Shown: positions 23,845-64,000 of the stretch, piece after piece | Layout of the letters: each line of letters begins with the position of its first letter | Position numbering within the stretch: position 1 is the first letter of the stretch | IMG/VR virus record: IMGVR_UViG_3300029444_000365 | Location: 1 to 64,000 of that record | Source: a virus | Strand: one strand, 5' to 3' | Length of the DNA stretch: 64,000 bases | Program-made: the position numbers and the translations under genes | Notes under the pieces: generated by a model | The model's database searches: none | Seen by the model: only the letters and a program-made list of their open reading frames with translations | What the model was told of the DNA's origin: nothing

Positions 23845-23869
23845 TTCATTACTCCTTTGATTTTGATGT

Positions 23870-24977: not shown

Positions 24978-25093
24978 GTATCTCACATTTTATATATTAG
25001 AACGTTCGTTCGATTTTGTCAATACTTTTATCGAACATTCATTCTGTTTTTTATATAATATCACGTTACGAGTCCCAAATTCTGCTCTCGTAA

Positions 25094-25724: not shown

Positions 25725-25873
25725 ATATCACATCCTCCTTTCTTATATTGAGTATTCATAACTACCTTGGATTACCTTTGATACTTCGTATTATATACCT
25801 ATACATATTATATGTCAACATATAATATTGAAAAATATAATATTTTTTGATATTATATTAATAAGTAATTCAC

Positions 25874-27310: not shown

Positions 27311-27621
27311 TCCCTTGTATAATCTGCTATCGCTTTTGCAATAGCTTTAGCTGCCATTTTACTCTTTAATGATTTCTGAATAGATTCTGTATTCCAAGGG
27401 ACATCACTAAACTCAGCTAACTCACCACCACAATTCCAATTCGGAATACTAAAGAATCCTCCATTTACATATTCTCCGAAAATCACACTATAATAATTTC
27501 CATTATATTCAACACCTATATGGTGAATATTTTCAACATAAGCATCACCATTATAACCGATTTTATAATTTTCCATATTAATCAACCTCACTTTCCTACA
27601 TACATATTCTCTGTTTTCCAT
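27307..27621 (-). CDS. hypothetical protein (104 aa)
   Basis: ATGA overlap with integrase start. Confidence 0.45.
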   Translation of the reverse strand: MENREYVCRKVRLINMENYKIGYNGDAYVENIHHIGVEYNGNYYSVIFGEYVNGGFFSIPNWNCGGELAEFSDVPWNTESIQKSLKSKMAAKAIAKAIADYTRE

Positions 27622-31719: not shown

Positions 31720-31810
31720 ACAATCACCTCCATTATATTATTCTCCACTAAAAAACAGACAACCTTTCGATTGCCTGTTTCAAGTCACATATTCAATTTA
31801 CAATTTTATA

Positions 31811-38869: not shown

Positions 38870-39098
38870 TTTCGTTTACCTCCGCTTTATATTTCTCAAA
38901 CACTTCTTCGCATCTCGCTTTGTCGCTGCTCCAAAATACTAAATGCCAGGAATAAACCCATTCTCCATTTTCAAAATATTTATATTTCTCTTGGATTTCC
39001 CATCGCTTATTCCAATGACTTCCAATTCCTTCAACCATTCTGTATTTCCGTAACCGCACCATTTCATTCACTCCTTCCATTACAAAAGGCAGACACAT
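38859..39098 (-). CDS. hypothetical protein (79 aa)
   Basis: ORF. Confidence 0.4.
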   Translation of the reverse strand: MCLPFVMEGVNEMVRLRKYRMVEGIGSHWNKRWEIQEKYKYFENGEWVYSWHLVFWSSDKARCEEVFEKYKAEVNENEN

Positions 39099-39131
39099 TT
39101 GTTTGCGTCTGCCTTTATTTATTCTCTGTTT

Positions 39132-46616: not shown

Positions 46617-46725
46617 TTGTTTTCTCTCCTTTTATTTATTTGACCGTATAGCCGTTATCTCAGCTATTATGTATTATTTATGCATATACCATAACTATGC
46701 ACCTCCTTTGCATATAGTTATTCTC

Positions 46726-47646
46726 TTAAATTGCCTTCTTTCTTGTTGCTTTTTTCTTTGTTGCTGTAAATGGGCTTTCCATTTCGTAACGTACAATTTC
46801 TGACAGATAATCAAAAATCTGTGCCTGTGTTTTATCCATGATATTTTCAACAAAGTATTCAGTTCCATTACAATGTTTAATTAAGGCTTTCTCCATTTCG
46901 TCTGTTCTGCCTTCTGTGTATGCATATAATGCTTTTAAAGCACGAATAATTTTTGCAGTATATGCTTTTCCGTTGTAACTATCTGCATATCCATTCCATT
47001 TGAGTTTGGTAATAATATTAAGAATATGATCAAGCAATTCTGGATTCATACGAACTAATTCAATTCCATCTGTTATGGATGTGAGCGTTCCAACTTTGTT
47101 TGCCTTATTTCTATCTCCTTTGACCGACAGATTGTATTTTTTACAAATATCTCTAAGTGTAATATAATCCTCATCTCCACTTGTTATCTTTGCCTTATAT
47201 GTATCTTTTGGTCTAATCTGTGTTCTGCCTTTTGTTTGATCCGTAAATATAGCGATTGCTTTCTTTAAATCGCATTCAATTACTTGTCCTACAATAAAAT
47301 CTTTTCCTGATTTTACTGCTCCGTATGTTCTATGTTGCCCTTCAATAGCCCAAAGTAATCCCATAAAATGCCAATAAATAGGCAATCCCCACAAATCACT
47401 ATCATAGTTATTTCCAATAGATAAAGCCTTTGGTACTCTGATTTCCCTTTGCCATTCTGGGTAATGGATGTATTTCGGATCAATACAAATCAAAACCTTA
47501 TCACCAATCCGTGAATTTACCTTTGCGTTCTTTACAAGTTCCTTTATAAATATTTTCTCTGTCTTTTCGTCAATCCCTGCTGCCTTCCTGATTTCTGCTA
47601 CTTCTTTCTCTGCTTCTTCTGGGAATAAAAATGTTCTTTTGCACAT
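46726..47646 (-). CDS. DndB-like DGQHR-domain (ParB/Srx-fold) protein, 306 aa
   Basis: WAIEGQHRTYGAV = DGQHR signature. Confidence 0.6.
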   Translation of the reverse strand: MCKRTFLFPEEAEKEVAEIRKAAGIDEKTEKIFIKELVKNAKVNSRIGDKVLICIDPKYIHYPEWQREIRVPKALSIGNNYDSDLWGLPIYWHFMGLLWAIEGQHRTYGAVKSGKDFIVGQVIECDLKKAIAIFTDQTKGRTQIRPKDTYKAKITSGDEDYITLRDICKKYNLSVKGDRNKANKVGTLTSITDGIELVRMNPELLDHILNIITKLKWNGYADSYNGKAYTAKIIRALKALYAYTEGRTDEMEKALIKHCNGTEYFVENIMDKTQAQIFDYLSEIVRYEMESPFTATKKKATRKKAI

Positions 47647-49869: not shown

Positions 49870-49993
49870 ACTGTACCTATCTACAATGTTACCATAAAAT
49901 CAGCCTCCTTTTCAATTTCCGTTTCGCTACTGCTCATCGGTTACGGACTCACACCGTAAGACGGAAGGCAGAACTTAATCTGCCTTTATATAA

Positions 49994-50239
49994 TTATCCA
50001 AAACATAATGTTATTTTGCGTTCTGTATAAGTACGCAACTCATTATTCCAGACTGTGCCTTCTGTATGCGAATATGTGCATGGCAAACCCTCATATTTTA
50101 AATCCGCAAGACATATATCTTTTAATTTTTTATTAGGCAATTCTATTCCTAGATCTGCCTTTATAAGTTGAGATATTATATCTTTTGCCTTATAGTTACC
50201 TTCTGCATCTGAATGAATTGTTGTTTGCATATTAAGCAT
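49994..50239 (-). CDS. hypothetical protein (81 aa)
   Basis: ORF. Confidence 0.4.
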   Translation of the reverse strand: MLNMQTTIHSDAEGNYKAKDIISQLIKADLGIELPNKKLKDICLADLKYEGLPCTYSHTEGTVWNNELRTYTERKITLCFG

Positions 50240-50241
50240 GA

Positions 50242-50433
50242 TTATACCTCCTGCAAATCTAATTTAATCATGTCTATAACTACAGTTCCCTTATATTTCA
50301 AAGGTTCATTATAAAAGGCATTCCAACCCTCTTTGATTTTTTCAAGCTGTTTTTGAGACAGCCACATGTCAAGCATGTTTTCTATTAAAGCCTGATTATT
50401 CATGACGTAAGTCCTCCTTAATCTCTGAAACAC
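50242..50433 (-). CDS. hypothetical protein (63 aa)
   Basis: ORF. Confidence 0.4.
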   Translation of the reverse strand: MFQRLRRTYVMNNQALIENMLDMWLSQKQLEKIKEGWNAFYNEPLKYKGTVVIDMIKLDLQEV

Positions 50434-50600
50434 TCTTCAAAGTCGCAAAGTGCCATTTCCCTATAAATTCCAGACGCACCGCCAAAAGTTCGTGCATATA
50501 AAAGCGCAAACTTATTTCGTGCATACTCTTTTGAAAATACGCCTATATTATAGGCAAGTCGAATAGAATATAATTCTTGTGAAAACTTGTCTTTCATCAT
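50418..50600 (-). CDS. hypothetical protein (60 aa)
   Basis: ORF. Confidence 0.4.
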   Translation of the reverse strand: MMKDKFSQELYSIRLAYNIGVFSKEYARNKFALLYARTFGGASGIYREMALCDFEECFRD

Positions 50601-50611
50601 ACTATTTCCCC

Positions 50612-51097
50612 TTAATCTCTAATATTTGAGGCAGTCCAGCCAGCGTTGCCTTTTCCGTACCAATGAGCCTCTTCAGTTACCTCGTTCCACTCAAGCGGAT
50701 TATTAATCTGATGTGTGTTAATCCGTGAGCCAGTTCCTTTTTTATGCAAAGCATATGTTTTCATCATGCTTTTACAACTATCAAAGGACAGATTTTCCCT
50801 TTGAACCGTAGGAATATAGCCTAACTTTTCACACGCAGACTTTACCCACTTATAAATCGGATGGTCTGCATTTACAAGCACATCTTGCCAATATCCGCAG
50901 AAAATATGGACTGGCAATTTACCATTGAAAAGCGCAAAATCATCGCATACCCAGAAAACACGCTTTTCGTTTTCGTTGGTGTATCTACCGTAGATTGCAC
51001 CTGGTAACACCTTAAAATCGCAAGGCAGATTTGTAACAGTTCCCTTACATAAACGCACATAAAATTTTGGTGCGTGTACGTGGTTATTTTTTGGCAT
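50612..51097 (-). CDS. hypothetical protein (161 aa; trimmed to MPKNNHV start)
   Basis: AGGGGG RBS; removes overlap with hairpin and tRNA-like fragment. Confidence 0.45.
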   Translation of the reverse strand: MPKNNHVHAPKFYVRLCKGTVTNLPCDFKVLPGAIYGRYTNENEKRVFWVCDDFALFNGKLPVHIFCGYWQDVLVNADHPIYKWVKSACEKLGYIPTVQRENLSFDSCKSMMKTYALHKKGTGSRINTHQINNPLEWNEVTEEAHWYGKGNAGWTASNIRD

Positions 51098-51144
51098 GGT
51101 TTCACCCCCTAAAATTAGGCGCACTTGTAGTGCGATTTTTGAAA

Positions 51145-51185
51145 TAGGCAGGCAGGGAATCGAACCCTGCTCACCTAGCACTTGC
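51145..51185 (-). other. tRNA 3'-half-like fragment (T-arm CAGGG-UUCGAUU-CCCUG + acceptor 3' strand CUGCCUA), no 5' half
   Basis: hand fold; upstream part does not form an anticodon arm; typical footprint of integration into a tRNA gene. Confidence 0.4.
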
Positions 51186-51200
51186 GTACTACTACCTAGA

Positions 51201-52022
51201 TTATTTTGCAGCCTTTTTGTCCTCAGACTTTACTTCAGGCTTGATAACCTCATGGTATTTCTCATTCGCAAGGACAACCGAACACAAGTCGGTAATACTT
51301 GCTACTTGCTGAGCTTTAGTCAGATTAAGGTTGTAGTTATACGGCTCATAATTCACCGTTTTATTACCTAAATCATCCTTGCCAGTCTTAATCTTTCTAC
51401 TAGCGTTACCGCCAAAAGAAGCGACAAAATGATGTAATAACCACTCATCAATAAATGAACGCTTGCAAGTAACTGGATAGAAATACTTACAATCCTCATT
51501 GTTAAAAATCTCAACAATCAACGGACGGAGATACTCTTTGAATTGTTTAAGCCCTGAACCTTTTGTGTAAAATGTTTTGATAGCATCAGCAATTTTCTTT
51601 GCTCTTTCATCTGAAAGAAAATCAGAATTAAAAGCTGTAATATCAATAGATTTATAAATCTGGTGCGCTAATAAATTGATGTGAACACGGTCTGTCAGTG
51701 GTAAAGCGGTCACTGTATCGAGTGACATGCAAGCCTCTACCTCTTTGCGAAGTTCTACGACATTATTCCGCTTAGAGATAAAGTCCCCTGCATCTACTCC
51801 GAGCTTCTCAACGACAACCCCAACCTCAGCGGTTAAAGCATCCACACCAAGAGCTACTCTTTCAAACTTCTCGCGCAAGTCTGTAAAAGCCTTCTCAGCC
51901 TTTGCAAGCTCAGCATGACGGACAACGGTCTTGACTGCATCCATAACTAAGAAGTTATCCTTTTTGCAAGCATCGAGATTAGTTGCGTCAGTTTTGATGT
52001 CGAATAATTCAGATTTTAACAT
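51201..52022 (-). CDS. hypothetical protein (273 aa; start at second Met with GGAAGGA RBS)
   Basis: ORF; by eye more GC-rich than its surroundings. Confidence 0.5.
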   Translation of the reverse strand: MLKSELFDIKTDATNLDACKKDNFLVMDAVKTVVRHAELAKAEKAFTDLREKFERVALGVDALTAEVGVVVEKLGVDAGDFISKRNNVVELRKEVEACMSLDTVTALPLTDRVHINLLAHQIYKSIDITAFNSDFLSDERAKKIADAIKTFYTKGSGLKQFKEYLRPLIVEIFNNEDCKYFYPVTCKRSFIDEWLLHHFVASFGGNASRKIKTGKDDLGNKTVNYEPYNYNLNLTKAQQVASITDLCSVVLANEKYHEVIKPEVKSEDKKAAK

Positions 52023-52968
52023 AAATAGTCCTTCCATCCTAGTTTTAACGTGGGGACATCCACGAAAAAAAATAAATAAGTTTCAATGTTTTTTTTACTG
52101 GAATAATTCCAGCGACTGCGCTATAATGGAATTGAACCACTACAAAAGATTTTATAAAAATCCAATGGTGCCAACTAGCGCACTATTCACCGACTAAGGT
52201 TACTTATATTTTTTTAAACCGATTGAACTAAAACAAGTTTTCGGAGATTTTAAAACTTGAGTTTTTCGCACTAGCTCATACGGATATAAGCTATTTTGTA
52301 AACCAGTATAAAACCAAAATCTAACAATTAAATGTTTTTTACTGGCTTGTATGTAAAATCTGTACGAATACAGATTATAGAAAAGTTGTGCTATGTATTG
52401 GTACTTGCTAACGGATATATGCTGTATATACATTAGCTTGCGCCCCGTCAAATATGTTTAGGTAAAATTAGTTCATGCCCCTGAACTTGCTAACTACATC
52501 TCATGCAATAGCTGTCTGTAATGTTATTATATAGGTTTACCAAGGTTTACACCTACAATTCTATTAGTACCATTCTACCATTCTACGGTGGTACTAAGAC
52601 AGTTAAGTTCGCTGTCGTGGCTTTAGTCTATATAACCGTTTTGACATACGTTTTAAATACGTCTATTCCGTCATCTGCTGTGCGGTGCTTCGCTCGTGTG
52701 GTCTATGACCTTTTTATTATAGCTGAGCAAATAGCTATCTTGCTATCATGTAGCAAGTGGTACTTTATTAACTTGTCAATCACTACTGAATGAAGTAGTA
52801 ATTAGGTTTCCGACACCCTTAACGTATGGACTTATAAAAAGGGTTTTGCCCCTTGCCCTTTCGGACAAGTCAATAATAATACAAATTTTGGGATTTTGCA
52901 ATACATTTTTTAGGATTTTTATTATTTTGTTAAAATTGTATAATTTTAGTATAGTTTTGGTGTGGGTT

Positions 52969-53049
52969 ATTGTGAATTATTCACAATTTGTTGATAACTA
53001 TGTGGATAAGTTTTAATTGATTGTTGATAACTTATAAAAATGTGGATAA
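52969..53049. promoter_or_regulatory. 19-bp perfect palindrome ATTGTGAATTATTCACAAT followed by four direct DnaA-box-like 9-mers (2x TGTGGATAA = rc TTATCCACA; 2x TGTTGATAA = rc TTATCAACA)
   Basis: seen directly in the 1.6-kb non-coding hub. Confidence 0.5.
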
Positions 53050-53564
53050 ACTAACGATAACAAAACTATATCAGATAATAATATCAATACTATATAACAT
53101 AGTTTTTAAAACTACATATAATGGTTTTTATAGTTCTAAAAAGAATGTATAATATATATCTATTATCCATTGTTTTGCCTAATTGGGGGTAGTTAAAACT
53201 AATTAATAAGGCTGGAAATGCAGCAAGCCCTATAGCTGATTCATCCACACACCAACTCAAAAATCCATCCTTCCCCAATCCTCAAAAATCCCAACAAAAT
53301 CAAGCAAAATCCCAAATTCTCTCCTCCAAACCACTTATCGTACCCCATATCGTCAAAACCCACTAAAATCAAGCATTTTCCTTGCTTTACAACCCAAAAA
53401 TCAAACCTTCCTCTCACCAAAAATTCATCCATAAATCCAAAATCTTCCTTATTTATAGGTACTTTTAACGATAACGTTTTTCACCTCAAAATCGCCCAAA
53501 TCATCTCTCACCACACTCCTCACATAGGGGGGTACTCAAAAAACTACACACAAAATCACTCCAA

Positions 53565-53585
53565 TAAGAGAATAACTATATAACC
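53565..53585 (+). promoter_or_regulatory. AGAGAATA-type promoter-like motif (ATAAGAGAATAACTATATAAC) upstream of 53622 gene
   Basis: one of 6-7 related copies upstream of plus-strand genes. Confidence 0.35.
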
Positions 53586-53621
53586 AATACAAAAATAATT
53601 ATTCAACTTAAAGGAGAAAAC

Positions 53622-54599
53622 ATGAATACATATCTAATACCAACAACAGCAGCTTATTGCTATGAACCTTATGATCATATCTATCTCGCATATGCCAACA
53701 CTCCACTAGAAGCATATAGAAAAGCACAAACAGAATTACAAGGTGAATACATACCACAAAAATTACAAAAATATGAATCATACTCATTTGAATTATATAA
53801 GCCAAATGACACTGCTACTTTCCCATTTCCAGAATCTCAAAAATATGATATACTTACAGAAGCGTTTAAGAATACAAAAGGAGCTGAGAATATGGGACAT
53901 TTTAATGTAAATTGGAATGAATATACTGAAGTTTTATCTAAAAAAGCAGATAAAGAAATTTGGTCAAATCCGACTTATCCTAATAATGGTATATTAACTA
54001 ATTATCTAGTTCATACCTATAAACGTCTTAGAACAGAAAGACAAATTATAAGAAAAGATAATTATGCTTTATTTAATACAGGACTCTTTACCAAGTATTA
54101 TGAATCAATATATGCGTATTCTGATCAGGAGTATAATGTATCATTTCTTACTGGACATGAATTAAATCAACATGGAATATCTGAACGTCCACAAAAAGCT
54201 AATTATTTTGAAGATCCTTCTCTTCTATTGTTTGATTGGCATTACCCAATAGATATACATTTCAAGCATATTTTGGAAGATGAAAAGAATAAAGAAAGAT
54301 TACCAAAAGGATTTTTAGAAAAAGAAAATAAAATGTGTATCTTAACAGGCGCAGTTGAATTAATGAAACGTAGAGTTTCAGCAAACTATAAATTAGCAAT
54401 TCCACAATGTTATGAAGATAAAATTCAATTATTACTTCCTTTATGTTTAGACACAGACGAAGGAAAACCTGATTTAGCTCTTGCAGTCACAAAATTAGAT
54501 AATTGTTATCAAGGATACACATGTTTAACACTTGATATGGCATATAATAATGCTCGTCTTATAGCTAAACCAGAGTCTAGTTGGTTATATTCTAAGTAA
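53622..54599 (+). CDS. hypothetical protein (325 aa)
   Basis: strong RBS AAAGGAGAAAAC; no family recognised. Confidence 0.6.
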   Translation: MNTYLIPTTAAYCYEPYDHIYLAYANTPLEAYRKAQTELQGEYIPQKLQKYESYSFELYKPNDTATFPFPESQKYDILTEAFKNTKGAENMGHFNVNWNEYTEVLSKKADKEIWSNPTYPNNGILTNYLVHTYKRLRTERQIIRKDNYALFNTGLFTKYYESIYAYSDQEYNVSFLTGHELNQHGISERPQKANYFEDPSLLLFDWHYPIDIHFKHILEDEKNKERLPKGFLEKENKMCILTGAVELMKRRVSANYKLAIPQCYEDKIQLLLPLCLDTDEGKPDLALAVTKLDNCYQGYTCLTLDMAYNNARLIAKPESSWLYSK

Positions 54600-54611
54600 A
54601 AATTGTTTATC

Positions 54612-54652
54612 TAAGGCAGATTGATTACTCAGTCTGTCTTATTTTTATGTCA
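54612..54652 (+). terminator. intrinsic terminator (AAGGCAGAUUG / CAGUCUGUCUU stem with two G-U pairs, then AUUUUUA)
   Basis: seen directly after 53622..54599. Confidence 0.5.
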
Positions 54653-55115
54653 AAATATACATCCACTCTCTCTAGCGTTCATATTGCTTCAAATAAGCCA
54701 TTCTAATTTTTAGACAACAATCTCTCCACCCACTTTCTTTTACACACCTTAAAAGGCAAAATACAAGGTCATATTTTTTAACTTCAAATCTCAAACTATA
54801 CAATATAACTAAATATATCATCAATATTGCAACGTATTTTATATAAAATGTATAGCATTCATTCTCATAACACCCTCTATAAGCTGAAAATTCACTGTCC
54901 TGACAGTGTGTAGAAAGTTCCAACCTACTACCCTTACACTTTATTGGCTAAACAATGCATTTCTCAAATTTACTATTCCAATAAGGAAAAATAAAAATGT
55001 ATGTCATATGTGCGTAAGCACAAGATATAGTCCCTTGATAGGGACGGTCTTTTCGCAGCGTTAGCAAGAAAAGAATATCTCTAGGGTAGACAACTGATAA
55101 CAAGCCCATACCAAA

Positions 55116-55130
55116 AGAGAGAATAATATA
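55116..55130 (+). promoter_or_regulatory. AGAGAGAATAATATA promoter-like motif
   Basis: 18 nt upstream of 55148 start. Confidence 0.35.
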
Positions 55131-55147
55131 CCAAGGAGGAATCAAAT

Positions 55148-55519
55148 ATGATACAAGAAAACGAAATACCAAAATATCTCAAGTCAAAAGAAAGCAATAT
55201 CTCAAAGAGTAATCGCAAATCAAAACACAAACATCATTATGAAGAATGTTTAATTCAATACAGATCCACATTTATAGGAAAGACTCGTCTTAATACAGAT
55301 TTATATACCTACTGTACTATTTGTGGAAAAATAAATGAGCGATTCAAGGAAAATAAATCTATTGTAAAAGATTATATCAGAGAAGTTAATTCGCCAATAG
55401 GTAAATTCAAATGCTACTCTCGTATTTCTAGTGAGGAATTATATAAAAAATATCATGATAAATTGCCAATATTCTTTGTAGAGAATATTTACAAAGAGAA
55501 GTATGTTGATTTAGAGTAG
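55148..55519 (+). CDS. hypothetical basic protein (123 aa)
   Basis: AAGGAGGA RBS. Confidence 0.5.
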   Translation: MIQENEIPKYLKSKESNISKSNRKSKHKHHYEECLIQYRSTFIGKTRLNTDLYTYCTICGKINERFKENKSIVKDYIREVNSPIGKFKCYSRISSEELYKKYHDKLPIFFVENIYKEKYVDLE

Positions 55520-55532
55520 AATAATAATCCAG

Positions 55533-56651
55533 ATGGAGAATAAAACTATAGGTACATCATACATGTACCTAAATGAAACCATCAATTTAAAACATATGTA
55601 TTTAAATCAACCAATAACAATCAAACAAAAGAAAGAAGGAATTATTATAATTGGGGTATATTCTATAACAAATTTGAAAACTAAAAAATTATATATTGGA
55701 GAAAGTCTTGATATTGATAAAAGATGGATTAACCATAAAAATGATCTTTTAAATAACCAACACGCTAATTATTATCTTCAACAAGATTTTAATAAGTTTG
55801 GGAAGGCATTTTTTAAATTTGAAGTTCTGCAAGAAGTTGAAAGAGATAGTATCACTATTACTCAATCCAAATTATTGATGTTAGAAAATGCTTATATAGA
55901 AAAATATAAAAATGAAGATTATGAATTATATAACATAGAAAATACACTAGAAGATGTTCTTTCAAATAAAAGGAAATTATTGGTTTGCGAAGAAATTGCA
56001 AATTATGTTGTAGTGTCTCAATTTTTAAGAAATAAATATGTATATGATTATACAAATAAAAGATTTAATTATTGTCAAAGAGATACAATTGAAAATTTAA
56101 TATTATCTAATTCTTCCATCAAAGGGAAAGAAAAAGCAAAGCAAGTTGCAAACATAATATTAAAAGAGTTAATTGATCAGAATTTATATGAAAACTTTAT
56201 AATAGAAAACACTTACTCTATTTATCTATATCATAAAATTCAAGAACGTAAAATTATAGAAATTAATTCTAAAGGTCGAGAATATATATTAAATCATTAT
56301 GACTTTAATTCGTTTTTATTGAGAAAAAGAACTTCTGAAACCAAATTTTATATACAACAATATCCCTCTGAAAAGAAAATTAAACCAGAAGATCAAAATA
56401 GAATACAAGATGTTTGGCATAAACTTAAAGATAAATGCATTTTACCACCAGAAAATAAATACAATGATTTTCGAGATATGCTTATAAAATTAAATTTAAT
56501 TATTATTGATAATAATAAGAGAACACGAGCAACTGAATTTGCAATGAAAAATAAATATTTTTTAGTTGTTAAATATAATAAAGCTAAAGATATTTATCAA
56601 TATGTTATATCTCAAGATGGTTTAAGGTATATTTTAGCAAATATAAAATAA
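55533..56651 (+). CDS. GIY-YIG homing-endonuclease-like protein (372 aa)
   Basis: GVYSITNLKTKKLYIGESLDIDKRWINHKN = GIY...YIG..R..H/N motif; long DNA-binding-type tail. Confidence 0.7.
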   Translation: MENKTIGTSYMYLNETINLKHMYLNQPITIKQKKEGIIIIGVYSITNLKTKKLYIGESLDIDKRWINHKNDLLNNQHANYYLQQDFNKFGKAFFKFEVLQEVERDSITITQSKLLMLENAYIEKYKNEDYELYNIENTLEDVLSNKRKLLVCEEIANYVVVSQFLRNKYVYDYTNKRFNYCQRDTIENLILSNSSIKGKEKAKQVANIILKELIDQNLYENFIIENTYSIYLYHKIQERKIIEINSKGREYILNHYDFNSFLLRKRTSETKFYIQQYPSEKKIKPEDQNRIQDVWHKLKDKCILPPENKYNDFRDMLIKLNLIIIDNNKRTRATEFAMKNKYFLVVKYNKAKDIYQYVISQDGLRYILANIK

Positions 56652-56747
56652 AATTTTTTAATTTACAGAGTAATTTGTGAAACAAATTGCGCTGTAAATA
56701 GTCTGTCTTATTAAATAAGTTATATATCTTCTTTCAGTTCAGTTGAC

Positions 56748-56807
56748 CTACACAAAAGTGTAGTCAAAATTCTCATATTTTAAAATTGGACATACACAAA
56801 AGTGTAG
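56748..56807. promoter_or_regulatory. two copies of 16-bp palindromic operator (C/A)TACACAAAAGTGTAG, centres ~45 bp apart
   Basis: seen directly, upstream of 56890 gene and of an AGAGAATA motif. Confidence 0.55.
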
Positions 56808-56846
56808 TTTGCTGAACGCTCGTAAAGGCGTTTCTCTTTAAATAGA

Positions 56847-56866
56847 AACAGAGAATAAATAAATAT
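56847..56866 (+). promoter_or_regulatory. AACAGAGAATAAATAAATAT promoter-like motif
   Basis: 24 nt upstream of 56890 TTG start. Confidence 0.4.
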
Positions 56867-56889
56867 CACATACAAAGGAGTATTTTTAA

Positions 56890-57696
56890 TTGCAACAAAA
56901 AATAGAATATTTTACACGTTTCCCAAATGGCTATATCCAAGGGAATATCAAAACAAAATATGGAGTTAGTAGGAAATTTTATATCACATACATACTTATA
57001 GATAAATACAGATCATATGAAGACTATAGTTGGATTACTATTCGTAAAGTAATGGAATTCTATGGCTATAAAACAACCAAACATAAACCAAAAGCATTTC
57101 ACGAAATTCTCGATGTATTAGAATATATGGTTAATAATAAAATGATTGAAGTAAAACAAGACCTTGATTCTATAGGATATGATACTGGAATTGAGATTAA
57201 GATAATTCCTGAAAATTTTGATCCGTGTAAAGATTTTTCAAAACTCACATCATCTCAATATGATTTTATAATGATGAATGAATCTTCTATAAATAGAGAG
57301 AATATATTAGTAGCCTTTCTATATATTAATTCTTATATTTATCTACGACAAAGAGATAAAAATGGCAATGAGCTATTATCAAAACCACAAGACAAGCCAG
57401 AAGCCTTTTGGCGAAGTATAGATTCTATGTCGAAAGAACTTTCTATGTCAAAAGACACAATTAATCAATGTATTCAATATCTCACATCTTCTATTGGCGA
57501 CAAAGAACCACTTCTAATCAAAAAAGAAGTCGGTAGTGTTCAGCCTGATCCCAAAAAACCACCACAAAATGTACCAAATATATATGTACTTAATAAAGAA
57601 GGATATGAGCAAGAAATTGAATGGGCTATTGCTAAGATGTTAGAAATCTATAATGTAGACTCATTTGGAGAAATCAAAAACGGCAATAAGTCGTAA
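56890..57696 (+). CDS. hypothetical protein (268 aa), TTG start
   Basis: AAAGGAG RBS; operator pair upstream suggests a regulated (early/regulatory) gene. Confidence 0.55.
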   Translation: MQQKIEYFTRFPNGYIQGNIKTKYGVSRKFYITYILIDKYRSYEDYSWITIRKVMEFYGYKTTKHKPKAFHEILDVLEYMVNNKMIEVKQDLDSIGYDTGIEIKIIPENFDPCKDFSKLTSSQYDFIMMNESSINRENILVAFLYINSYIYLRQRDKNGNELLSKPQDKPEAFWRSIDSMSKELSMSKDTINQCIQYLTSSIGDKEPLLIKKEVGSVQPDPKKPPQNVPNIYVLNKEGYEQEIEWAIAKMLEIYNVDSFGEIKNGNKS

Positions 57697-57700
57697 CTAA

Positions 57701-57719
57701 AACAGAGAATAAACATATG
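57701..57719 (+). promoter_or_regulatory. AACAGAGAATAAACATATG promoter-like motif
   Basis: 77 nt upstream of 57796. Confidence 0.35.
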
Positions 57720-57795
57720 TAATAAATTAACGCAGCACTCAAAGGAGCTGATTACAATATGAATAATAATTTTAAAACAAAAGGAGAACTAATTA

Positions 57796-57996
57796 ATGAA
57801 CAAAACCGTAACAATTACATCAAAGAACCATAAATATGCAAATACATATGGGGGAAATATTTGTATATCAGATTTTTGCACTGATTATGAAGGCAGTCGA
57901 AATATTGCAGAACGTATTGAATCTGCATGGCGATTTGATAGGTCATGTGAAAGAAATAGAGTTGTATTAGATGATTATAAGGAGAGACAAAAATAA
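57796..57996 (+). CDS. hypothetical protein (66 aa)
   Basis: AAAGGAG RBS. Confidence 0.5.
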   Translation: MNKTVTITSKNHKYANTYGGNICISDFCTDYEGSRNIAERIESAWRFDRSCERNRVVLDDYKERQK

Positions 57997-58298
57997 TGGC
58001 AGATATAAATATGAGTGTATCAATTGAGGAGCAGGAAATTTGTATTAATGCAATGCGTGATGAAAAGTTTGCAACAATATATGCTTCCGATTCTACATAT
58101 ATTACGAAATTGGATAGATTGTATAAGGAAAGCCCTGATATGTACTCTCTTATTGAAGATACAAGTAGAGGCAAGAAATATTTATTAAAGGATAAAACTC
58201 TTATCAGTTTCAGAGCAAAGAAACGTGAACTTACAGATGAGCAAAAGAAACAAGCTGCTGAACGTATGAGAAAATATCAAGCCAATAAATCTAACTGA
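57996..58298 (+). CDS. hypothetical protein (100 aa)
   Basis: ATGA-type overlap with upstream gene. Confidence 0.5.
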   Translation: MADINMSVSIEEQEICINAMRDEKFATIYASDSTYITKLDRLYKESPDMYSLIEDTSRGKKYLLKDKTLISFRAKKRELTDEQKKQAAERMRKYQANKSN

Positions 58299-58436
58299 GA
58301 TACCCTTTCTAGCCAGAATTTCTAATGTAGACCATTGTACAGAAAATTCTAATCCCATTCGTGAAGAAATACTCGTCTAAGAATTACATTTTTCAAATTA
58401 CAATAAACAACAATAAATAGAAAGAAGGATTACATT

Positions 58437-58790
58437 ATGCTGAGAAATTATTATCAAGGAACAATGATAACTGTCGAGTTACCAAAGAATCAATATAAAG
58501 GTTATGTGGTTGATTGCATATACAGATATGTCAAGGATATGAACAAGTATGCACTGAGCATGTGGCTTCGTAATACTGGAGTTGACGACAGAATGCAGAT
58601 TTGCTCACAGGAAATTAATACTCAATACATTACAAGCACAAGAGAGAATATAAAGAAGGATGTGTGTGCAATTGTTGAGCAAGCTGCCAATAGTTCATAT
58701 TTTGACAAGTCGATTGAGACTTATGAGTATACACAGAAATGTTTTGAGCGTGGCAATGCTGAATTTGAGAATGAGGAGAACAGATCATGA
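58437..58790 (+). CDS. hypothetical protein (117 aa)
   Basis: AAGAAGGA RBS. Confidence 0.5.
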   Translation: MLRNYYQGTMITVELPKNQYKGYVVDCIYRYVKDMNKYALSMWLRNTGVDDRMQICSQEINTQYITSTRENIKKDVCAIVEQAANSSYFDKSIETYEYTQKCFERGNAEFENEENRS

Positions 58791-59017
58791 GCTGTCCATA
58801 TTGTAGAGGAATAGGTGAACATGATTACAGATGTCCTCTTTGGCAGCCAAGTAAAAAGGCAAGAGTTAAGTGTGGTTATTGTGATGAGTATATTCTTGAA
58901 GGTGACGATTACGTTGAGATTAATGGATGGGCTTATCACAAAGACTGCTTAACTGTTAATAGGTTACTTGATTTAATTGGAGTTATTACAAAGGAGATGT
59001 CGTATGAATTGGATTAA
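58787..59017 (+). CDS. hypothetical zinc-ribbon protein (76 aa)
   Basis: CPYCRG...C..C..CGYCDE; ATGA overlap. Confidence 0.5.
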   Translation: MSCPYCRGIGEHDYRCPLWQPSKKARVKCGYCDEYILEGDDYVEINGWAYHKDCLTVNRLLDLIGVITKEMSYELD

Positions 59018-59132
59018 AAGAAAGATAAAATGGATTATTTATAAACTTAATGGACTTATACCTAAGATACATGACTTGCCTGACGTTGTGTATATTAAGT
59101 GGATGGGCGAGGAATTCATTATTAAGAAGTAA
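59004..59132 (+). CDS. hypothetical protein (42 aa, MNWIKRKIKWIIYKLNGLIPKIHDLPD...)
   Basis: AAGGAG RBS 8 nt upstream; overlaps upstream gene end. Confidence 0.45.
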   Translation: MNWIKRKIKWIIYKLNGLIPKIHDLPDVVYIKWMGEEFIIKK

Positions 59133-59145
59133 ATAGAAATTTTAT

Positions 59146-59161
59146 TTGGAGAATATATAAG
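59146..59161 (+). promoter_or_regulatory. TTGGAGAATATATAAG promoter-like motif
   Basis: 24 nt upstream of 59185. Confidence 0.35.
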
Positions 59162-59184
59162 TGGAGAAAAAAGGAGGATTCAAA

Positions 59185-59505
59185 GTGTATTGTTTTCAAA
59201 AGAAGGATGGAACAGTAAAGAAATATTACAAAGAAGCCATCGACTACATTCTGACTGCAACAGTTCAAAAACATGAAATAATGGTTGGAAGATCTGATGA
59301 AGTTGGAAAAATATATGAATGCTATACAACTAAAAGGAAAAGATTTTTAGAACCCAAACGAAACACAATTCAATCTAAAATCATTGACATATGTGCTGAA
59401 TTTGGTTGTTATACAAATCCGTGGTATAGCGGTTATCAAGAAATTTCAATTGAATTGCATGGAGATAATGTGGAATTTATGCTAAATGAACTTAGAAAAT
59501 ATTAA
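59185..59505 (+). CDS. hypothetical protein (106 aa; GTG start with AAGGAGGA RBS)
   Basis: track ORF 59161 start moved to in-frame GTG with proper RBS spacing. Confidence 0.45.
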   Translation: MYCFQKKDGTVKKYYKEAIDYILTATVQKHEIMVGRSDEVGKIYECYTTKRKRFLEPKRNTIQSKIIDICAEFGCYTNPWYSGYQEISIELHGDNVEFMLNELRKY

Positions 59506-59526
59506 TAATAAACAAAAGGAGGATTT

Positions 59527-59991
59527 ATGGCTGGTATAGTTGAAAAAGAAACCAATTTTTATCTATATAAGATTATAGATAAAGACGAATTAGTGTATAT
59601 TGGGAAATCAACTAATATTGATAATAGAATTGAAGTTCATAGCGTTATAAATAATCATTTTGATAAAAACACGTATTTTATATGTAGAGGAGAAAGTATA
59701 TCAAATTTGGTTATTTATATTGCAAATGTTCCTGACGAGTATCTTTTGTCAATATATGAAATAACATTAATTTCAAAATATAAACCACTATATAATAACA
59801 GCGACAAGTATGATACAAAACATCTATTAAAGTTACCAAAAATAAATTGGTTTCCATATGTATCAAAAGAAAATTGTGAAGCAATTTATAACATGAAAAC
59901 AGGCAAGATTATTGATACTTGTTTAATAGATACACCACTAAAAAGATGGAATATTTTAAAAGATTTACATATGGAGGAAATTAAATGTTAG
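59527..59991 (+). CDS. small GIY-YIG-like endonuclease (154 aa)
   Basis: NFYLYKIIDKDELVYIGKSTNIDNRIEVH; AAGGAGGA RBS. Confidence 0.55.
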   Translation: MAGIVEKETNFYLYKIIDKDELVYIGKSTNIDNRIEVHSVINNHFDKNTYFICRGESISNLVIYIANVPDEYLLSIYEITLISKYKPLYNNSDKYDTKHLLKLPKINWFPYVSKENCEAIYNMKTGKIIDTCLIDTPLKRWNILKDLHMEEIKC

Positions 59992-62753
59992 ATACACAGA
60001 TTAATATGTATTCTGTTGATACAGGTCATTTTTATAGCAATCATGAAAAATACTTACATGAAATGAACTGTAAATACAGACGTGAAAGAAATTATGTAAA
60101 TAATATGCTTCCAAAATTAGAAGAAGAACTCGTAACGCAAGGTTATAACAAAGATGATTTTTCTGATTGGAAACGTTGTACCGTTGAAGACTACTATGAA
60201 CAAGAAAATGATTCTGTAAAAGAATATATGAAGTGGTGTTTGATTATAAAACACAAAAGAGAGAAAGCAAATTTATCAAAAGAAAAACTTTTGAATCTAT
60301 TATCAAATAAGACAATTCAAAAAGAGAATCTATCGAATAAAATCGAGTATTGCAAATCGCATAATATTCCATATAATAAAAAAATCGAATTAAGAGAGTT
60401 AAGAAAAGACGAACTAAATGATAATAATATCATTTCAGTATTTGAATCTTCCCTTACCCGTATTATCGGCATTAAAAAAGACGAACTAACAGACGCTCTT
60501 ATTGTAGTTCAAGTTTATTATTTTGATGTATTTAAAGATTTATCTTTTTATGGATTTATGTATAATGGCGAAAAATACAGATACTTTACATCTTCTGCTG
60601 GTCAAATTCGTAAGAAAAAAGCTGTTTTTATTAAAGAATCAGTATGGAATGAAGTTGAAAAGACAGTCATGTGTGGTCTTACTATTGATAAAATAAACTC
60701 AAAGGGTGGAAACAATGTAAATAAACATCTTGCATATATGGCATTGGCGAATTCAGCTACTGACCAGTGGAATGATTTTAATATAGACAGATGTATTGTT
60801 GTAGATGATTTTGAAACGAATGTTCCAGGAGAATTTGATTTTATTGATGAGACTGATTATTCGATTGAGAGAAAAACTGGTACTGTTCCGATTACTCATA
60901 CTGATGGAGCTGGCATGATGTTGCCAAGCGTAATGATGAAAAATACAATGTTTCGTGCGCCTTGGGTAAAAGGTTTATTGGGGGTATTTGATTTTAAAAA
61001 GTTTATTGAAGTGAACAACTGCTCTCCTATTATCACAGATATTTATGGACAAGACCATGATGTAATTGCTGAAGATATTAGAATAATTTTCACAAAAAGT
61101 CAATTTAAGATGTATAAGTTTTACGATTCATGGGATGAGTATAAGACATATTTTAAGCAATATCATTGTCAAGCTGGTAGATGCAACACTGAGGAAGATA
61201 GAATTAAAAATGCAAAAATCAATTATCAGATGTTACAAACTCTCACAAATGTAACAGACGAAGAGATTGATTTACTTACAAAGAAGTCTGTAGAACGAAT
61301 TACAAATATTTGTAACTCTGTTGATACCATGAAAGATATTCTTGGAATTACACCTTATAATACAAATATGACAGCTTTTCAAAAAGCAGTAAATATTTAT
61401 CCTGCTCTACTCAACGATACATATGCAAAAGACGTGATCCGTGAAGTAAAGAATAGCCTTTTAAAAAAATATAGAAGTGGAAAACTTGAAGTAAATGGAA
61501 AATATACTTTCTTACTTCCAGATTATTATGCAGCTTGTGAGTATTGGTTTGGGCACATTGATACACCTAAAGGATTGTTGGCAGACAAAGAGGTGTTTTG
61601 TTGGTTATTTAAACAATATGATAAACTTGACTGTCTAAGAAGTCCTCACCTCTACAAAGAACATGCTATTCGTTTTAATGTGGCGAATAAAGTATATGAG
61701 GAACGAGTTGATAAAATCAGAGAATGGTTTATAACAAATGCGGTATATACAAGTACATATGACTTGATTAGTAAAATTCTTCAGTTTGATGTTGATGGAG
61801 ATAAATCATTGGTGGTTGCTGATCCTGATTTTGTAAGAATCGCAGAACGTAATATGAATGGTGTTGTACCACTCTATTATAATATGCGTAAAGCTGAACC
61901 AAGAATTTTGAATAATCAGAGTATTTATGAAGGATTAAATGCGGCATTTACAGGTGGAAATATCGGTATTTATAGCAACAATATTTCAAAAATCTGGAAT
62001 AATGACGTATTTATCAATGGAACAGATGAGGAAAAAGAACATGCAACTAATTGTGTCAAGCGTTTATGCTGTCAAAATAATTTTGTTATTGATTACGCTA
62101 AGACATTATACAAACCTGAGTTTCCAGAAACAATTGGTGAAGAAATTAAAGAGTTTACCAATCAGAAACTTCCTGCATTCTTTGAATACGCCAAAGACAA
62201 GGAAAAATCACAAGTTGATGATAGAAATGATAGTTTTGTAAATAAACTCTACTCTCGTATTCCTAATAAATCAATTAATACAAGAGGTATGAAACTTGGA
62301 GAATTAAAATATAAGGATATGATGAAAAACCCTGATATTGTATGCTCTAAAGAAGTTTCTGATTTGTATGATGAGTTAAACAAGAAGTATCGTTATATGA
62401 TTAATATGAAGGATGAATATATTGATAATCTTCATTATGTAGCTTGTTCTATTAGAAACCAGTTTGCGGAGCTTGGATATTCGGAAGAAATGATTGCTGA
62501 TATGCTTGTGCAGTATTTGTATGAAGGGGAAAAACGTGGAAAACAATTATTTTGGTTTTGTTATGGTCAGTATGTAGTTGTCAATTTAGAGAAAAATCCA
62601 AATATTAAAAAGAAAAAGACTAAAATGATTCAGTGTATTGATTGTGGTGAATGGATTGAAGTTGATTTTATGTCCAAGTCATGTAGATGTGAACTTTGTC
62701 AGCATGAATATCGAAAACAGCTTGATCGAGAAAGAAAAAGAAAAAACAAGTAA
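59985..62753 (+). CDS. YonO-like single-subunit two-barrel (DPBB) DNA-dependent RNA polymerase, 922 aa
   Basis: LRSPHLYKEHA (beta-prime RxPxLH DPBB1 motif) ~50 aa upstream of QFDVDGDKSLVV (beta-prime NADFDGDQMAVH catalytic motif); size and phage context as SPbeta YonO. Confidence 0.6.
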   Translation: MLDTQINMYSVDTGHFYSNHEKYLHEMNCKYRRERNYVNNMLPKLEEELVTQGYNKDDFSDWKRCTVEDYYEQENDSVKEYMKWCLIIKHKREKANLSKEKLLNLLSNKTIQKENLSNKIEYCKSHNIPYNKKIELRELRKDELNDNNIISVFESSLTRIIGIKKDELTDALIVVQVYYFDVFKDLSFYGFMYNGEKYRYFTSSAGQIRKKKAVFIKESVWNEVEKTVMCGLTIDKINSKGGNNVNKHLAYMALANSATDQWNDFNIDRCIVVDDFETNVPGEFDFIDETDYSIERKTGTVPITHTDGAGMMLPSVMMKNTMFRAPWVKGLLGVFDFKKFIEVNNCSPIITDIYGQDHDVIAEDIRIIFTKSQFKMYKFYDSWDEYKTYFKQYHCQAGRCNTEEDRIKNAKINYQMLQTLTNVTDEEIDLLTKKSVERITNICNSVDTMKDILGITPYNTNMTAFQKAVNIYPALLNDTYAKDVIREVKNSLLKKYRSGKLEVNGKYTFLLPDYYAACEYWFGHIDTPKGLLADKEVFCWLFKQYDKLDCLRSPHLYKEHAIRFNVANKVYEERVDKIREWFITNAVYTSTYDLISKILQFDVDGDKSLVVADPDFVRIAERNMNGVVPLYYNMRKAEPRILNNQSIYEGLNAAFTGGNIGIYSNNISKIWNNDVFINGTDEEKEHATNCVKRLCCQNNFVIDYAKTLYKPEFPETIGEEIKEFTNQKLPAFFEYAKDKEKSQVDDRNDSFVNKLYSRIPNKSINTRGMKLGELKYKDMMKNPDIVCSKEVSDLYDELNKKYRYMINMKDEYIDNLHYVACSIRNQFAELGYSEEMIADMLVQYLYEGEKRGKQLFWFCYGQYVVVNLEKNPNIKKKKTKMIQCIDCGEWIEVDFMSKSCRCELCQHEYRKQLDRERKRKNK

Positions 62754-62792
62754 AATTCCGCATATCTTTAATGATATTTTGCACCCATTAGT

Positions 62793-62832
62793 AATGGACT
62801 ATTTTTAAATGCTATTTTTTAAATAGTCCATT
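62793..62832 (+). other. 12-bp perfect inverted repeat AATGGACTATTT...AAATAGTCCATT (16-nt loop) after RNAP gene
   Basis: seen directly; no U-run, so a hairpin or protein site rather than a classic terminator. Confidence 0.4.
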
Positions 62833-62953
62833 CAATATGGACTTTCATTTGTGTCTATATGGAGAACAACATATCATATAGGCATAAGCCTAATTTACAA
62901 ATCAAGATATGTTTCTATAAACGAATTCGTGCAGTTGGGAGGAATGATTATTT

Positions 62954-63247
62954 TTGACAATTACACAGGAAAAGATTATTAAAGAAATCGCAGAGAAAGA
63001 AGATATAAATGTAGCGACAGTCCGTAAGGTATTCAAAAGGGCAGAGAAATGTATATTCGCCTACCTATCTTCTACTACTCCCACTGATAATACAGTGGTA
63101 AAAATTTTAGATGGATTAAGTTTGGAATGTAAATATATTCCAGAAAAAGAAATTCATACATATGATAATATCCGATGTGAGGCAAAAATTTGGACGAAAC
63201 CAAAAATAACTCGTTATTACAATAGAAAGTTAAATGGATATTTTTGA
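62954..63247 (+). CDS. HU/IHF-like DNA-binding protein (97 aa), TTG start
   Basis: ITQEKIIKEIAEKEDINVATVRKVF...VKILDGLSLECKYIPEKE resembles HU family (as SPO1 TF1); GGGAGG RBS. Confidence 0.4.
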   Translation: MTITQEKIIKEIAEKEDINVATVRKVFKRAEKCIFAYLSSTTPTDNTVVKILDGLSLECKYIPEKEIHTYDNIRCEAKIWTKPKITRYYNRKLNGYF

Positions 63248-63281
63248 TTAAACAATGAAATCAGCTTTTCTTGGCTGATAA

Positions 63282-63300
63282 AACAGAGAATATATAATTG
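63282..63300 (+). promoter_or_regulatory. AACAGAGAATATATAATTG promoter-like motif (contains TATAAT)
   Basis: follows hairpin ATCAGC-ttttcttg-GCTGAT. Confidence 0.35.
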
Positions 63301-63615
63301 TCGAGAGACATTATAATATTTCGCCTAACACATGGATATATTTTAGTTGCTGTGAAGCCATGTGAAAAACTTGTGTATGAGTGTGAGAAATCAAGTGAGT
63401 TCAGCAAGCAAAAACTTGTACCATACATTTCTGTGGAAGCTATTTGAAGGCTATTGTCATTATGACACATGAGCCAAAGGCGTTTTCAAGCAGAACAATT
63501 CTAAAAATTATTTCTAAGATTGGTATATATTCATATTGTACTACCTCTTCTTATATGTGTTGGTGGCTGTACTACAGTTCTTGTAGTATGGTCACTGATA
63601 ATTCTTAAATATTAT

Positions 63616-63689
63616 CGCGGAATGACGAGCAATGGAAGCTCACTTGGCTCATAACCAAGAGTATGCAGGTTCGAGTCCTGTTTCCGCAA
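63616..63689 (+). tRNA. tRNA-Met/initiator-like (anticodon CAU), no encoded CCA
   Basis: anticodon stem CUUGG/CCAAG with loop CUCAUAA, T-arm GCAGG-UUCGAGU-CCUGU, acceptor CGCGGAA/UUCCGCA with C1:A72 mismatch (initiator-like), D-arm GAGC/GCUC; D-region offset unresolved by hand. Confidence 0.5.
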
Positions 63690-64000
63690 CTCTCCTACTT
63701 TTTGTAGGACGGTCGGTTTCGGATCGTGAGTTGTTGAAACTCAAAATAAACTTAGTAATAAGGATAAAGCAGGAATGTCTTTAGTTCGCATAAGACACTG
63801 CGACTGCGCATAGTAGTTTGACGGAAAACACAGATAATCTATACCAAACCTAAAACCAGAGGGCTACTGCTAATGATATGGCTTGGTAGGGGCGATGAAA
63901 AACGCTCTGTATTAACATGGAAACATGGGTATGATTACTGTCTTATTGGTGCGATTTCCGCAAGAAAAAGTGCTGATATTGATTGTTGCAACGTTTCTTA

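Follow-up and report, generated by a model that had tools for sequence, protein, structure and literature searches.

Which RNA polymerase reads the short, GAGAATA-centered element that recurs upstream of genes in a 64,000-nucleotide (nt) stretch of viral DNA (positions 1 to 64,000 of IMG/VR record IMGVR_UViG_3300029444_000365; hereafter, the window), and is this element a promoter? The window, with a G+C content of 32%, belongs to an SPbeta-like phage or prophage from Lachnospiraceae. Minus-strand genes occupy positions 1–53432 and plus-strand genes start at 53622; the layout resembles that of SPbeta, with small early genes on one long arm and, diverging from it, an arm with yonO, a small open reading frame (ORF), a long non-coding region, and yonJ-like genes. 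Relatives are plentiful in IMG/VR gut viromes and are found as prophages in Lachnospiraceae genomes (Lachnospira, Eubacterium, Lactonifactor, Faecalicatena, and Blautia); a search of the annotated phage collection for DNA near-identical to the window gave no match. The sequence of metagenome contig L076 matches window positions 49985–64000 exactly and extends 8.7 kb beyond (here and below, L001 and L082 are the SPbeta record NC_001884.1, and other L numbers are relatives compared with the window). The motif is real, strongly directional, conserved in the clade, and distinct from sigma-A promoters; the best-supported reading is that it most likely constitutes a phage-specific promoter of the extended −10 type.

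The exact 10-mer ACAGAGAATA is present in eight copies in the window, with 0.39 expected and no shuffle reaching eight, and RGAGAATAWNWA in 22 copies, with 1.6 expected. Unseeded expectation maximization (EM) over 47 intergenic regions of both arms, with the Shine–Dalgarno (SD) sequences trimmed, yielded AAAAGAGAATAAATAAATAT as the top motif, found in approximately half of the regions; the intergenic search proposed by an earlier sequence-only reading of the window does recover the element. Intergenic sites of the window and relatives served to build a weight matrix, which produces 34 matches in the window, all 34 in the local gene sense, and none in the reversed sequence. Around the integrase-like gene of 80 related loci, 360 motif copies are in the sense and none in the antisense orientation.

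The sequence-only reading quoted six plus-strand strings, all of which are present where it placed them, with the first G of GAGAATA (by which copies are referred to below) at positions 53568, 55119, 56851, 57705, 59149, and 63286. These members are unequal, however: 56851, 57705, and 63286 are strong, 53568 and 59149 are good, and 55119 is below the threshold in the window. The claims that the motif is restricted to the plus strand and that the minus strand has no comparable set fail. Five of the eight exact ACAGAGAATA copies are on the minus strand (168, 3812, 23881, 27611, and 39126), where further good sites are seen at 1858, 12474, 16916, 19286, 31745, and 46725, giving about 11 good ones in all. 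With this restriction dropped, the motif would represent a promoter class spread over the whole genome instead of one peculiar to the yonO arm; approximately 18 promoter-like sites are observed per 64 kb, on both arms.

On the plus strand, ATAAGAGAATAACTATATAACC (53563–53584, score 17.9) is located 54 nt from the ATG of the DUF3825 gene, the first of the plus arm, and is conserved in L028 and L042. The weak, sub-threshold copy AAAGAGAGAATAATATACC (55114–55135) abuts the SD of a 123-amino-acid (aa) gene that has a copy in L014, L028, and L042 as well. Strong copies are GAAACAGAGAATAAATAAATAT (56846–56867, score 22.5), 39 nt from the TTG start of a 268-aa gene; AAAACAGAGAATAAACATATGTAA (57700–57721, score 21.8), 6 nt past the upstream stop codon, with the upstream flank swapped exactly at the motif edge in relatives; and AAAACAGAGAATATATAATTG (63281–63302, score 22.2), past a small HU-like ORF and heading 1.6 kb of non-coding sequence that includes tRNA-Met and a GOLLD-like RNA. 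The latter copy precedes no protein-coding gene, which narrows the earlier statement that each copy is upstream of a gene. Finally, TTTGGAGAATATATAAGTGG (59144–59165, score 18.6) is upstream of the genes preceding yonO, and the variant TATGGAGAACAACATATCAT (62857–62878), directly past a terminator-like hairpin after yonO, is replaced by canonical GGAGAATAAATAAATAGG in relatives.

On the minus strand, the exact copy AAAACAGAGAATA is seen twice: at 152–173 (score 18.3), 52 nt before the stop codon of ORF 116–670, and at 27595–27616, in the 3′ end of the upstream ORF, 35 nt from the next ATG and conserved in L126, L191, L204, and L209. The exact copy GAAACAGAGAATA is also seen twice: at 23865–23886 (score 19.0), 37 nt from the ATG of a sigma-factor gene, and at 39110–39131 (score 18.9), 3 nt past the upstream stop codon and followed by a GC hairpin. 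The remaining exact copy, GACAGAGAATA (3796–3817), is 69 nt from the modelled ATG (3743) of a cytosine-5 methyltransferase gene. Other copies are TTTAGAGAATAAATACATAT (1842–1863), a weight-matrix match 41 nt from an isochorismatase-like gene; AAAACGGAGAATATAATAGT (12458–12479, score 19.8), 60 nt from a 685-aa gene and conserved in L126, L158, L191, and L210; AAAAAGAGAATATAGATATAG (16900–16921), 30 nt from the GTG start of an ABC-permease gene; AAATAGAGAATAACTTGG (19270–19291), followed by a hairpin and tRNA-Gln (19246–19172) and conserved in L126 and L209; AGTGGAGAATAATATAATGG (31729–31750), 26 nt from an ATG that has a separate GGAGGTG SD; and TTAAGAGAATAACTATATGC (46709–46730), upstream of a 75-aa gene. 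Generally, the distance from the motif to the start codon or RNA gene is 26–91 nt, and a separate SD is present at each site; some copies fall in the last 11–52 nt of the upstream ORF or 3–6 nt past its stop codon, and two precede tRNA or non-coding RNA genes.

Stable GC hairpins lie within 10 nt downstream of two minus-strand copies: GGCAGACGC...GTGTCTGCC TTTTG at 39095–39126, and TGGTGTGG...CCACACCA at 19254–19286. These could be 5′ stabilizing stem–loops or terminators downstream of a promoter; the latter option would matter if the protein reading the motif ignores intrinsic terminators, as a flap-less YonO might. Many copies also have ATG-TAA or ATG-TAG about 14 nt past the first G (57715–57720; L002 7591, L028 1669, L056 3867), maybe incidental to a preference for A-T-R in the initiation region, or else a start–stop element.

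The short core is less specific than the complete motif. GAGAATA occurs 66 times in the window, in 44 cases in coding sense, in 20 in intergenic sense, and in two in antisense (both inside coding sequence), that is, 0.82 copies per kb in coding sense versus 1.98 per kb in intergenic sense. Hence, a similar frequency in coding sequence, which the sequence-only reading had regarded as fatal to a promoter, is partly observed for the short core. Intergenic DNA has a 4.5-fold higher density of the extended 12-mer AA[AC]AGAGAATA than coding sense, half of the “coding” copies of this 12-mer are in the last 11–52 nt of an ORF and directly before the following gene, and the flank information is present only at intergenic copies. 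Several copies of GGAGAATAAATAnATG (9055, 15848, 20331, 20872, 30186, and 48594) are a plain SD plus spacer, with GGAG before the start codon and 12–16 nt to it, in agreement with the earlier suggestion that some GAGAATA strings act as SD; none of the 18 promoter-like sites is of this kind, each having its own SD farther downstream. As the core is common both in coding sequence and in SD spacers, only the extended form is diagnostic, namely, A-A-(A/C)-R-GAGAATA-W plus A/T-R about 12 nt downstream.

In an alignment of 154 non-redundant strong sites from the window and relatives, only positions −5 to +8, counted from the first G, carry information (A, A, A, A/C, A/G, GAGAATA, W, W), apart from a weaker A/T/R signal at +12 to +14. 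GAGAAT is invariant in the strong class (8/8 exact ACAGAGAATA copies and the 154 non-redundant sites), and A at its position 2 and T at its position 6 follow the pattern of −10 boxes, in which these bases are flipped out by sigma-70-family factors. A purine occupies the predicted +1, about 12 nt past the first G, in 78% of sites, with T as the next base. The shortest distances between the motif and the SD are 15–18 nt (31745, 55119, and 16916), which fits a start near +12 and excludes one near +22. The promoter would then be one contiguous block, A(−16) A(−15) M(−14) R(−13) GAGAAT(−12 to −7) A(−6), with AAMR occupying the place of an extended −10 element and with the purine-rich motif position +12 as the transcription +1. 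The idea of an extended −10-type promoter put forward in the sequence-only reading thus appears right in kind, given the strict direction, the separate SDs, the lack of sigma-A elements in register, and the A(−11)/T(−7) pair.

Upstream of this block, at positions −45 to −6 of the 154 sites, no position exceeds 0.2 bit and no AGGA-type k-mer is enriched, that is, the SigH-type −35 box (RnAGGAwww) is not seen. Near the 18 window sites, the mean best score of sigma-A-like −35/−10 pairs is 8.36, compared to 8.42 at random positions. A sigma-A promoter, or an extended −10 promoter with TGn, was rejected, given the lack of both a −35 box and TG, with sigma-A matches at the random level. A promoter of extracytoplasmic function (ECF) type, with AAAC serving as the −35 “AAC” and GTA at +14 as the −10 box, was rejected as well, since transcription would start past the SD at 27611, 31745, 16916, and 55119. 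Host SigH alone is an unlikely reader without its −35 box.

The 12-mer is retained at syntenic places in relatives with YonO at least ~70–76% identical, namely past yonO and the small ORF, before a cluster with a 66-aa gene, and before the sigma gene; the 63286 copy is at the same position in relatives with YonO 81–98% identical and also in L108 (70%). Diverged relatives (about 70–80% YonO identity) have the variants TAGAGAATA, AAGAGAATA, and CAGAGAATC. At distant YonO loci (below about 70% identity), per-locus EM and counts of repeated 10-mers were over-fitted or uninformative, and no common motif was recovered. Where relatives share sequence on one side of the motif only, most of 179 pairs diverge at −4 to −13 and, for the other flank, 53 of 56 pairs diverge at +7 to +16. 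Such breaks indicate that the copies sit at module boundaries and provide short homology for exchange, like the repeated promoters of other mosaic phages, and junctions at the motif edges are as expected for the head of a transcription unit.

Among candidate readers, the host core RNA polymerase carrying a phage sigma-H-like factor and acting on extended −10, −35-less promoters is given about an even chance of being the correct one. The sigma factor that the sequence-only reading had named as a candidate exists: PHROGs, homologue domains, a profile search against PDB, and Foldseek all assign the 186-aa product of 23284–23844 (minus strand) to the sigma-70 family, the last two as sigma-H-like. 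It matches phrog_351 “RNA polymerase sigma factor” (E 5.5e-7); its homologues carry PF04542/PF08281 (Sigma70_r2, r4_2) and are called sigma by JGI and nr; the profile of 27 homologues gives the best PDB match to sigma-H 3mzy (E 2e-4), followed by SigA region 2; and for its AlphaFold model, with a predicted local distance difference test score (pLDDT) of 80, the top 50 Foldseek matches are all sigma factors, the best being the B. subtilis SigH model. Pfam and NCBIfam scans of the window ORFs missed this protein. A search of phage records by tblastn retrieved one match only, in a phage from a faecal metagenome, and none in SPbeta.

Specificity for GAAT is family-wide for sigma-H/ComX-type factors: B. 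subtilis SigH has the −10 pattern RnnGAATww, and the streptococcal ComX cin-box TACGAATA is likewise a single block in the −10 region. The −10 boxes of C. difficile SigH promoters are GTAGAATA, GTAGAATT, GAAGAATA, and ATAGAATT (PMC7438776, Table 3). GAGAAT agrees with the clostridial SigH −10 box (TAGAAT) in 5/6 positions, and the −10 core AGAAT(A/T) is in common, R-GAGAAT-A-W here corresponding to GTAGAATA and ATAGAATT. Differences are also clear: the SigH −35 box, AAAGGA or AGAGGA about 12–14 nt upstream, is absent here, and an AAAC extension abuts the −10 box instead; and the factor itself, unlike SigH, is phage-encoded, 186 aa long, and paired with a DUF262 protein. Promoters lacking the −35 box are characteristic of phage sigma factors such as T4 gp55 (late promoter TATAAATA) and phiEco32 gp36 (TAATGTATA). 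Similar to these systems, the motif is one block of 8–12 bp near −10 with many copies in gene sense, and a small, divergent phage sigma factor would redirect the host core; the sequence and the sigma lineage differ, and the phage considered here also has its own RNA polymerase, YonO. The motif copy 37 nt before the sigma ATG is kept there in relatives with three different sigma types, which fits the usual set-up of self-activating alternative sigma factors.

Several observations speak against the sigma factor as the reader. There is no −35 box although the protein has a region-4 helix–turn–helix; motif copies are also present in the late arm (63286; L076 64726 and 71676); and in 18 contigs where YonO is 82–98% identical to that of the window and the sigma-like protein only 23–74%, the motif is unchanged, which weakens the assignment. 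The sigma locus is hypervariable, with alleles 23–75% identical among phages that are otherwise 95% alike; an unchanged motif would be compatible with this only if every allele retains the family-wide preference for GAAT. The alleles do have in common a putative recognition segment, F-x-T-F-L-x-x-N-I-x-R, and the sigma factor survives as a candidate, with reduced confidence. Further, a DUF262/GmrSD_N-like gene (21816–23264, minus strand) always follows the sigma-like gene; the two are fused in some relatives into proteins of 590–740 aa (e.g., L094 7758–9533, minus strand), and in distant Lachnospiraceae clades the fusion gene is divergent and adjoins yonO. This constant pairing or fusion suggests that the sigma-like protein may have a narrower role than that of a general transcription factor. 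More remotely, by analogy with T4 gp55 and the sliding clamp, the sigma-like protein, being adjacent or fused to a ParB/DUF262-type domain, might be a DNA-tethered sigma factor, in which case the missing −35 box would be explained.

The competing candidate that survives best, although rather unlikely, is the YonO polymerase, acting on the motif alone or with a phage helper such as the adjacent small HU-like protein. As the sequence-only reading had it, a YonO-like polymerase is encoded by the window: a 922-aa single-chain two-barrel RNA polymerase (59985–62753, plus strand; PF05183; phrog_8308, E 2.7e-246), with 44% identity to SPbeta YonO and 49% to the homologue from C. botulinum phage D-1873. 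The promoter sequence of YonO has not been defined in any phage (PMC5467207). The motif tracks YonO (82–98%) and not the sigma allele (23–74%), and is retained in relatives with YonO identity as low as about 70%. Promoters consisting of one block, with no −35 box, are typical of phage RNA polymerases, e.g., that of P23-45 and the non-virion RNA polymerase of AR9 (AACA-N6-T-A/G). In AR9, the late promoter of this polymerase is A(−11)ACA-N6-T-A/G(+1) (PMC5449584). Here too the element is short, limited to the −10 region, starts with AACA, and comes from an AT-rich Firmicute phage with a non-canonical two-barrel polymerase, but the spacing is AACA-N5-TA, one base shorter, and AR9 reads template-strand uracil via gp226. 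Pfam and NCBIfam scans of the window ORFs revealed no beta/beta′-like gene of an AR9-type multisubunit polymerase.

Position provides further points on both sides. The 63286 copy is located past yonO and a small, weakly HU-like ORF and heads a long non-coding RNA region; the mapped SPbeta start is in the corresponding place, past yonO–yonN and before an unannotated non-coding RNA and yonK. In SPbeta, YonO is needed only for 37 late genes, transcribed from a single start site, and early genes are YonO-independent (PMC5467207). The polymerase family and the synteny of the 63286 copy (past yonO and a small ORF, before a large non-coding RNA and yonJ-like genes) are thus shared, whereas SPbeta has one known start and the window about 18 motif copies on both arms, some of them upstream of yonO; only the 63286 copy is at the head of the late operon, and the other 17 are elsewhere. 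Copies of the motif precede the yonO cluster itself, the sigma gene, and early-arm genes by the dozen, so that YonO production in a prophage would itself depend on YonO. The core also resembles a sigma-type −10 box and matches that of the encoded sigma family. In the 200-nt primer bracket holding the SPbeta YonO start (B. subtilis 168 position 2225998; L001 4550–4350), no GAGAATA-like word is evident between the primer-extension primers, and an exact scan of the genome collection for the published SPbeta primer gave no match. The broader proposal that AAAC-R-GAGAATA-W is the promoter class of YonO-type polymerases, possibly HU-assisted, with YonO transcribing most of the genome in this clade, seems similarly improbable, perhaps slightly more so; if YonO were the reader, the motif would provide the first YonO promoter consensus. 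Between the two readers, the sequence evidence leans to the sigma factor.

The helper candidate is the 97-aa ORF 62954–63247 (plus strand), between yonO and the 63286 copy, which has 65 distinct homologues among related loci and no Pfam match. Going by a collinear hhalign match to HU, a helix–helix–strand–strand–strand–helix model (pLDDT 70), and top Foldseek matches of this model to HU proteins (probability 0.9, E 0.28), the product may be a divergent HU/IHF-like protein and is a candidate partner of YonO. The 1.6-kb non-coding stretch that follows (63303–64000, continuing into L076 13300–14860) contains tRNA-Met, a second tRNA, and the GOLLD-like RNA. The match to GOLLD (RF02032) is full-length but sub-threshold (74.7 bits versus the gathering threshold of 150; E 5e-19) and is seen only in the extension L076; at the gathering threshold, Rfam finds only tRNAs in the window. 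In SPbeta, the corresponding place has 1.7 kb of non-coding sequence, with a match to DUF3800-VIII RNA. The yonO arm also contains GIY-YIG homing-endonuclease-like genes at 55533–56651 and 59527–59991 (both plus strand), the latter abutting yonO; in some SPbeta relatives, the yonO match is split in two with extra ORFs in between, in one record a GIY-YIG nuclease.

An operator would be a different kind of element, and we regard it as improbable that the motif is the binding site of a phage regulator and not a promoter itself. The counterpart would be SPBRE, a repeated SPbeta element bound by the master repressor MrpR, with about 10 sense, AT-rich, non-palindromic copies located, similarly to the motif, just before ribosome-binding sites (PMC10516654). 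The two elements belong to phages of related type and layout, occur in about 10–20 sense AT-rich copies, and can be aligned in the register ACA-N10-ATATGTA; the Bacilli relative L123 carries ACAAATAAARTTATAA; and the window encodes a tyrosine-recombinase-like protein (26282–27310) and two Cro/CI-type helix–turn–helix proteins. In the SPbeta sequence, however, SPBRE is read as a whole sigma-A promoter, TAGACA-AATACAAAWAATATGTA-TATAAT, which serves the early genes and has a conserved 17-nt spacer as the binding site of MrpR (all copies in gene sense, at NC_001884.1 positions 64161, 66415, 68705, 68769, 76195, 77884, 83407, 99580, and 110900; degenerate copies just upstream of yonO, at 63919, and inside the yonO 3′ end, at 61399). 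At the motif sites, positions +17 to +22 contain no −10 hexamer, and neither in register nor close by is there a sigma-A promoter on which a repressor could act. With the SPBRE consensus ACAAATAYAAAWAATATGTAT, only ACA and a part of ATATGTA agree, the core here being GAGAATA; and SPBRE is limited to the early arms, whereas the motif is also present in the late arm. As a homologue of MrpR (YopR), the recombinase-like protein, the only such protein in the window, was rejected: it has no similarity to YopR or YopP (BLASTP E > 1 for both) and keeps the recombinase box motifs TGIRESEL and HMMRH. As SPbeta shows no match to the sigma factor and has SPBRE of sigma-A type, the difference in the sigma gene parallels that in the repeated element.

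Least of all, and with very little chance of being right, the motif could act in RNA (processing, stability, or translation) or be a by-product of the purine-rich coding strand and of GGAGAATAAATA-ATG ribosome-binding sites: all copies are on the transcribed strand, GAGAATA is frequent in coding sense, many GGAGAATAAATAnATG copies are a genuine SD plus spacer, ATG-TAA or ATG-TAG mini-ORFs follow several copies, and an RNase-J-like protein is encoded by the phage just downstream; but the 12-mer is concentrated in intergenic DNA, its flanks are informative only there, the variable spacing to the SD or start (26–91 nt) does not fit a translation signal, the mosaic junctions at either edge of the motif argue for a function at the DNA level, and long sequence-specific sites are untypical of the known general bacterial ribonucleases.

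Returning to the promoter read by the phage sigma factor, we infer both the transcript starts at the motif sites and the protein that reads them. Upstream of the sigma gene by 1.15 kb, on the same strand, there is a canonical sigma-A promoter, TTGACA-17-TAATAT, with the LexA (Cheo) box CGAACGAACGTTC in the spacer (24994–25046, minus strand). Since the phage carries both the sigma gene and YonO, a three-tier program may be proposed, consisting of the LexA-controlled sigma-A promoter, the phage sigma factor, and YonO. In this cascade, DNA damage would lift LexA from the sigma-A promoter at 25022–24994; the sigma gene would be transcribed and its expression self-reinforced from the 23881 motif copy; the sigma holoenzyme would fire about 18 motif promoters on both arms, including five before the yonO cluster and one before the region of tRNA and GOLLD-like RNA; and YonO would then take over late transcription, as in SPbeta. 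A second box-like sequence, GAATGAATGTTC, is found directly upstream of the LexA-box promoter at 25022, and in prophages from GTDB similar LexA-box promoters precede the sigma-like gene adjoining yonO.

SPbeta-like phages are large temperate phages whose transcription program is only partly known even in the Bacillus model. The gut (Lachnospiraceae) branch appears to have swapped the sigma-A/SPBRE early promoters for a private promoter class. With about 18 sites per 64 kb, the motif could be used for annotating transcription units in hundreds of uncultured gut phage genomes, and its copies at mosaic junctions help explain the exchange of modules among these phages.

Other features of the window were also observed. 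A 12/12 sigma-A promoter, TTGACA-17-TATAAT (25818–25790, minus strand), precedes a PemK/MazF-like toxin gene and faces plus-strand promoter-like sites (25790–25856); in the same region, relatives have a divergent pair of Cro/CI-type helix–turn–helix genes adjoining the integrase-like gene, and the region 25790–25856 is probably the lysis–lysogeny switch. A cluster related to RNA repair and nicotinamide adenine dinucleotide (NAD) (6049–9611 and 7062–8450, minus strand; L206 14391–15548) comprises a Sir2 deacylase, a CCA-adding tRNA nucleotidyltransferase, and a Tpt1/KptA RNA 2′-phosphotransferase; in relatives it also includes an RNA ligase, and two tRNA-Gln genes are located elsewhere in the window. 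This cluster looks like a counter-measure to host anticodon nucleases. Finally, a set of ABC transporter genes (permease and ATPase; 12652–16886, minus strand), with a downstream 527-aa protein combining substrate-binding NMT1-like and OmpA-like domains, is unusual cargo for the early arm of a phage.

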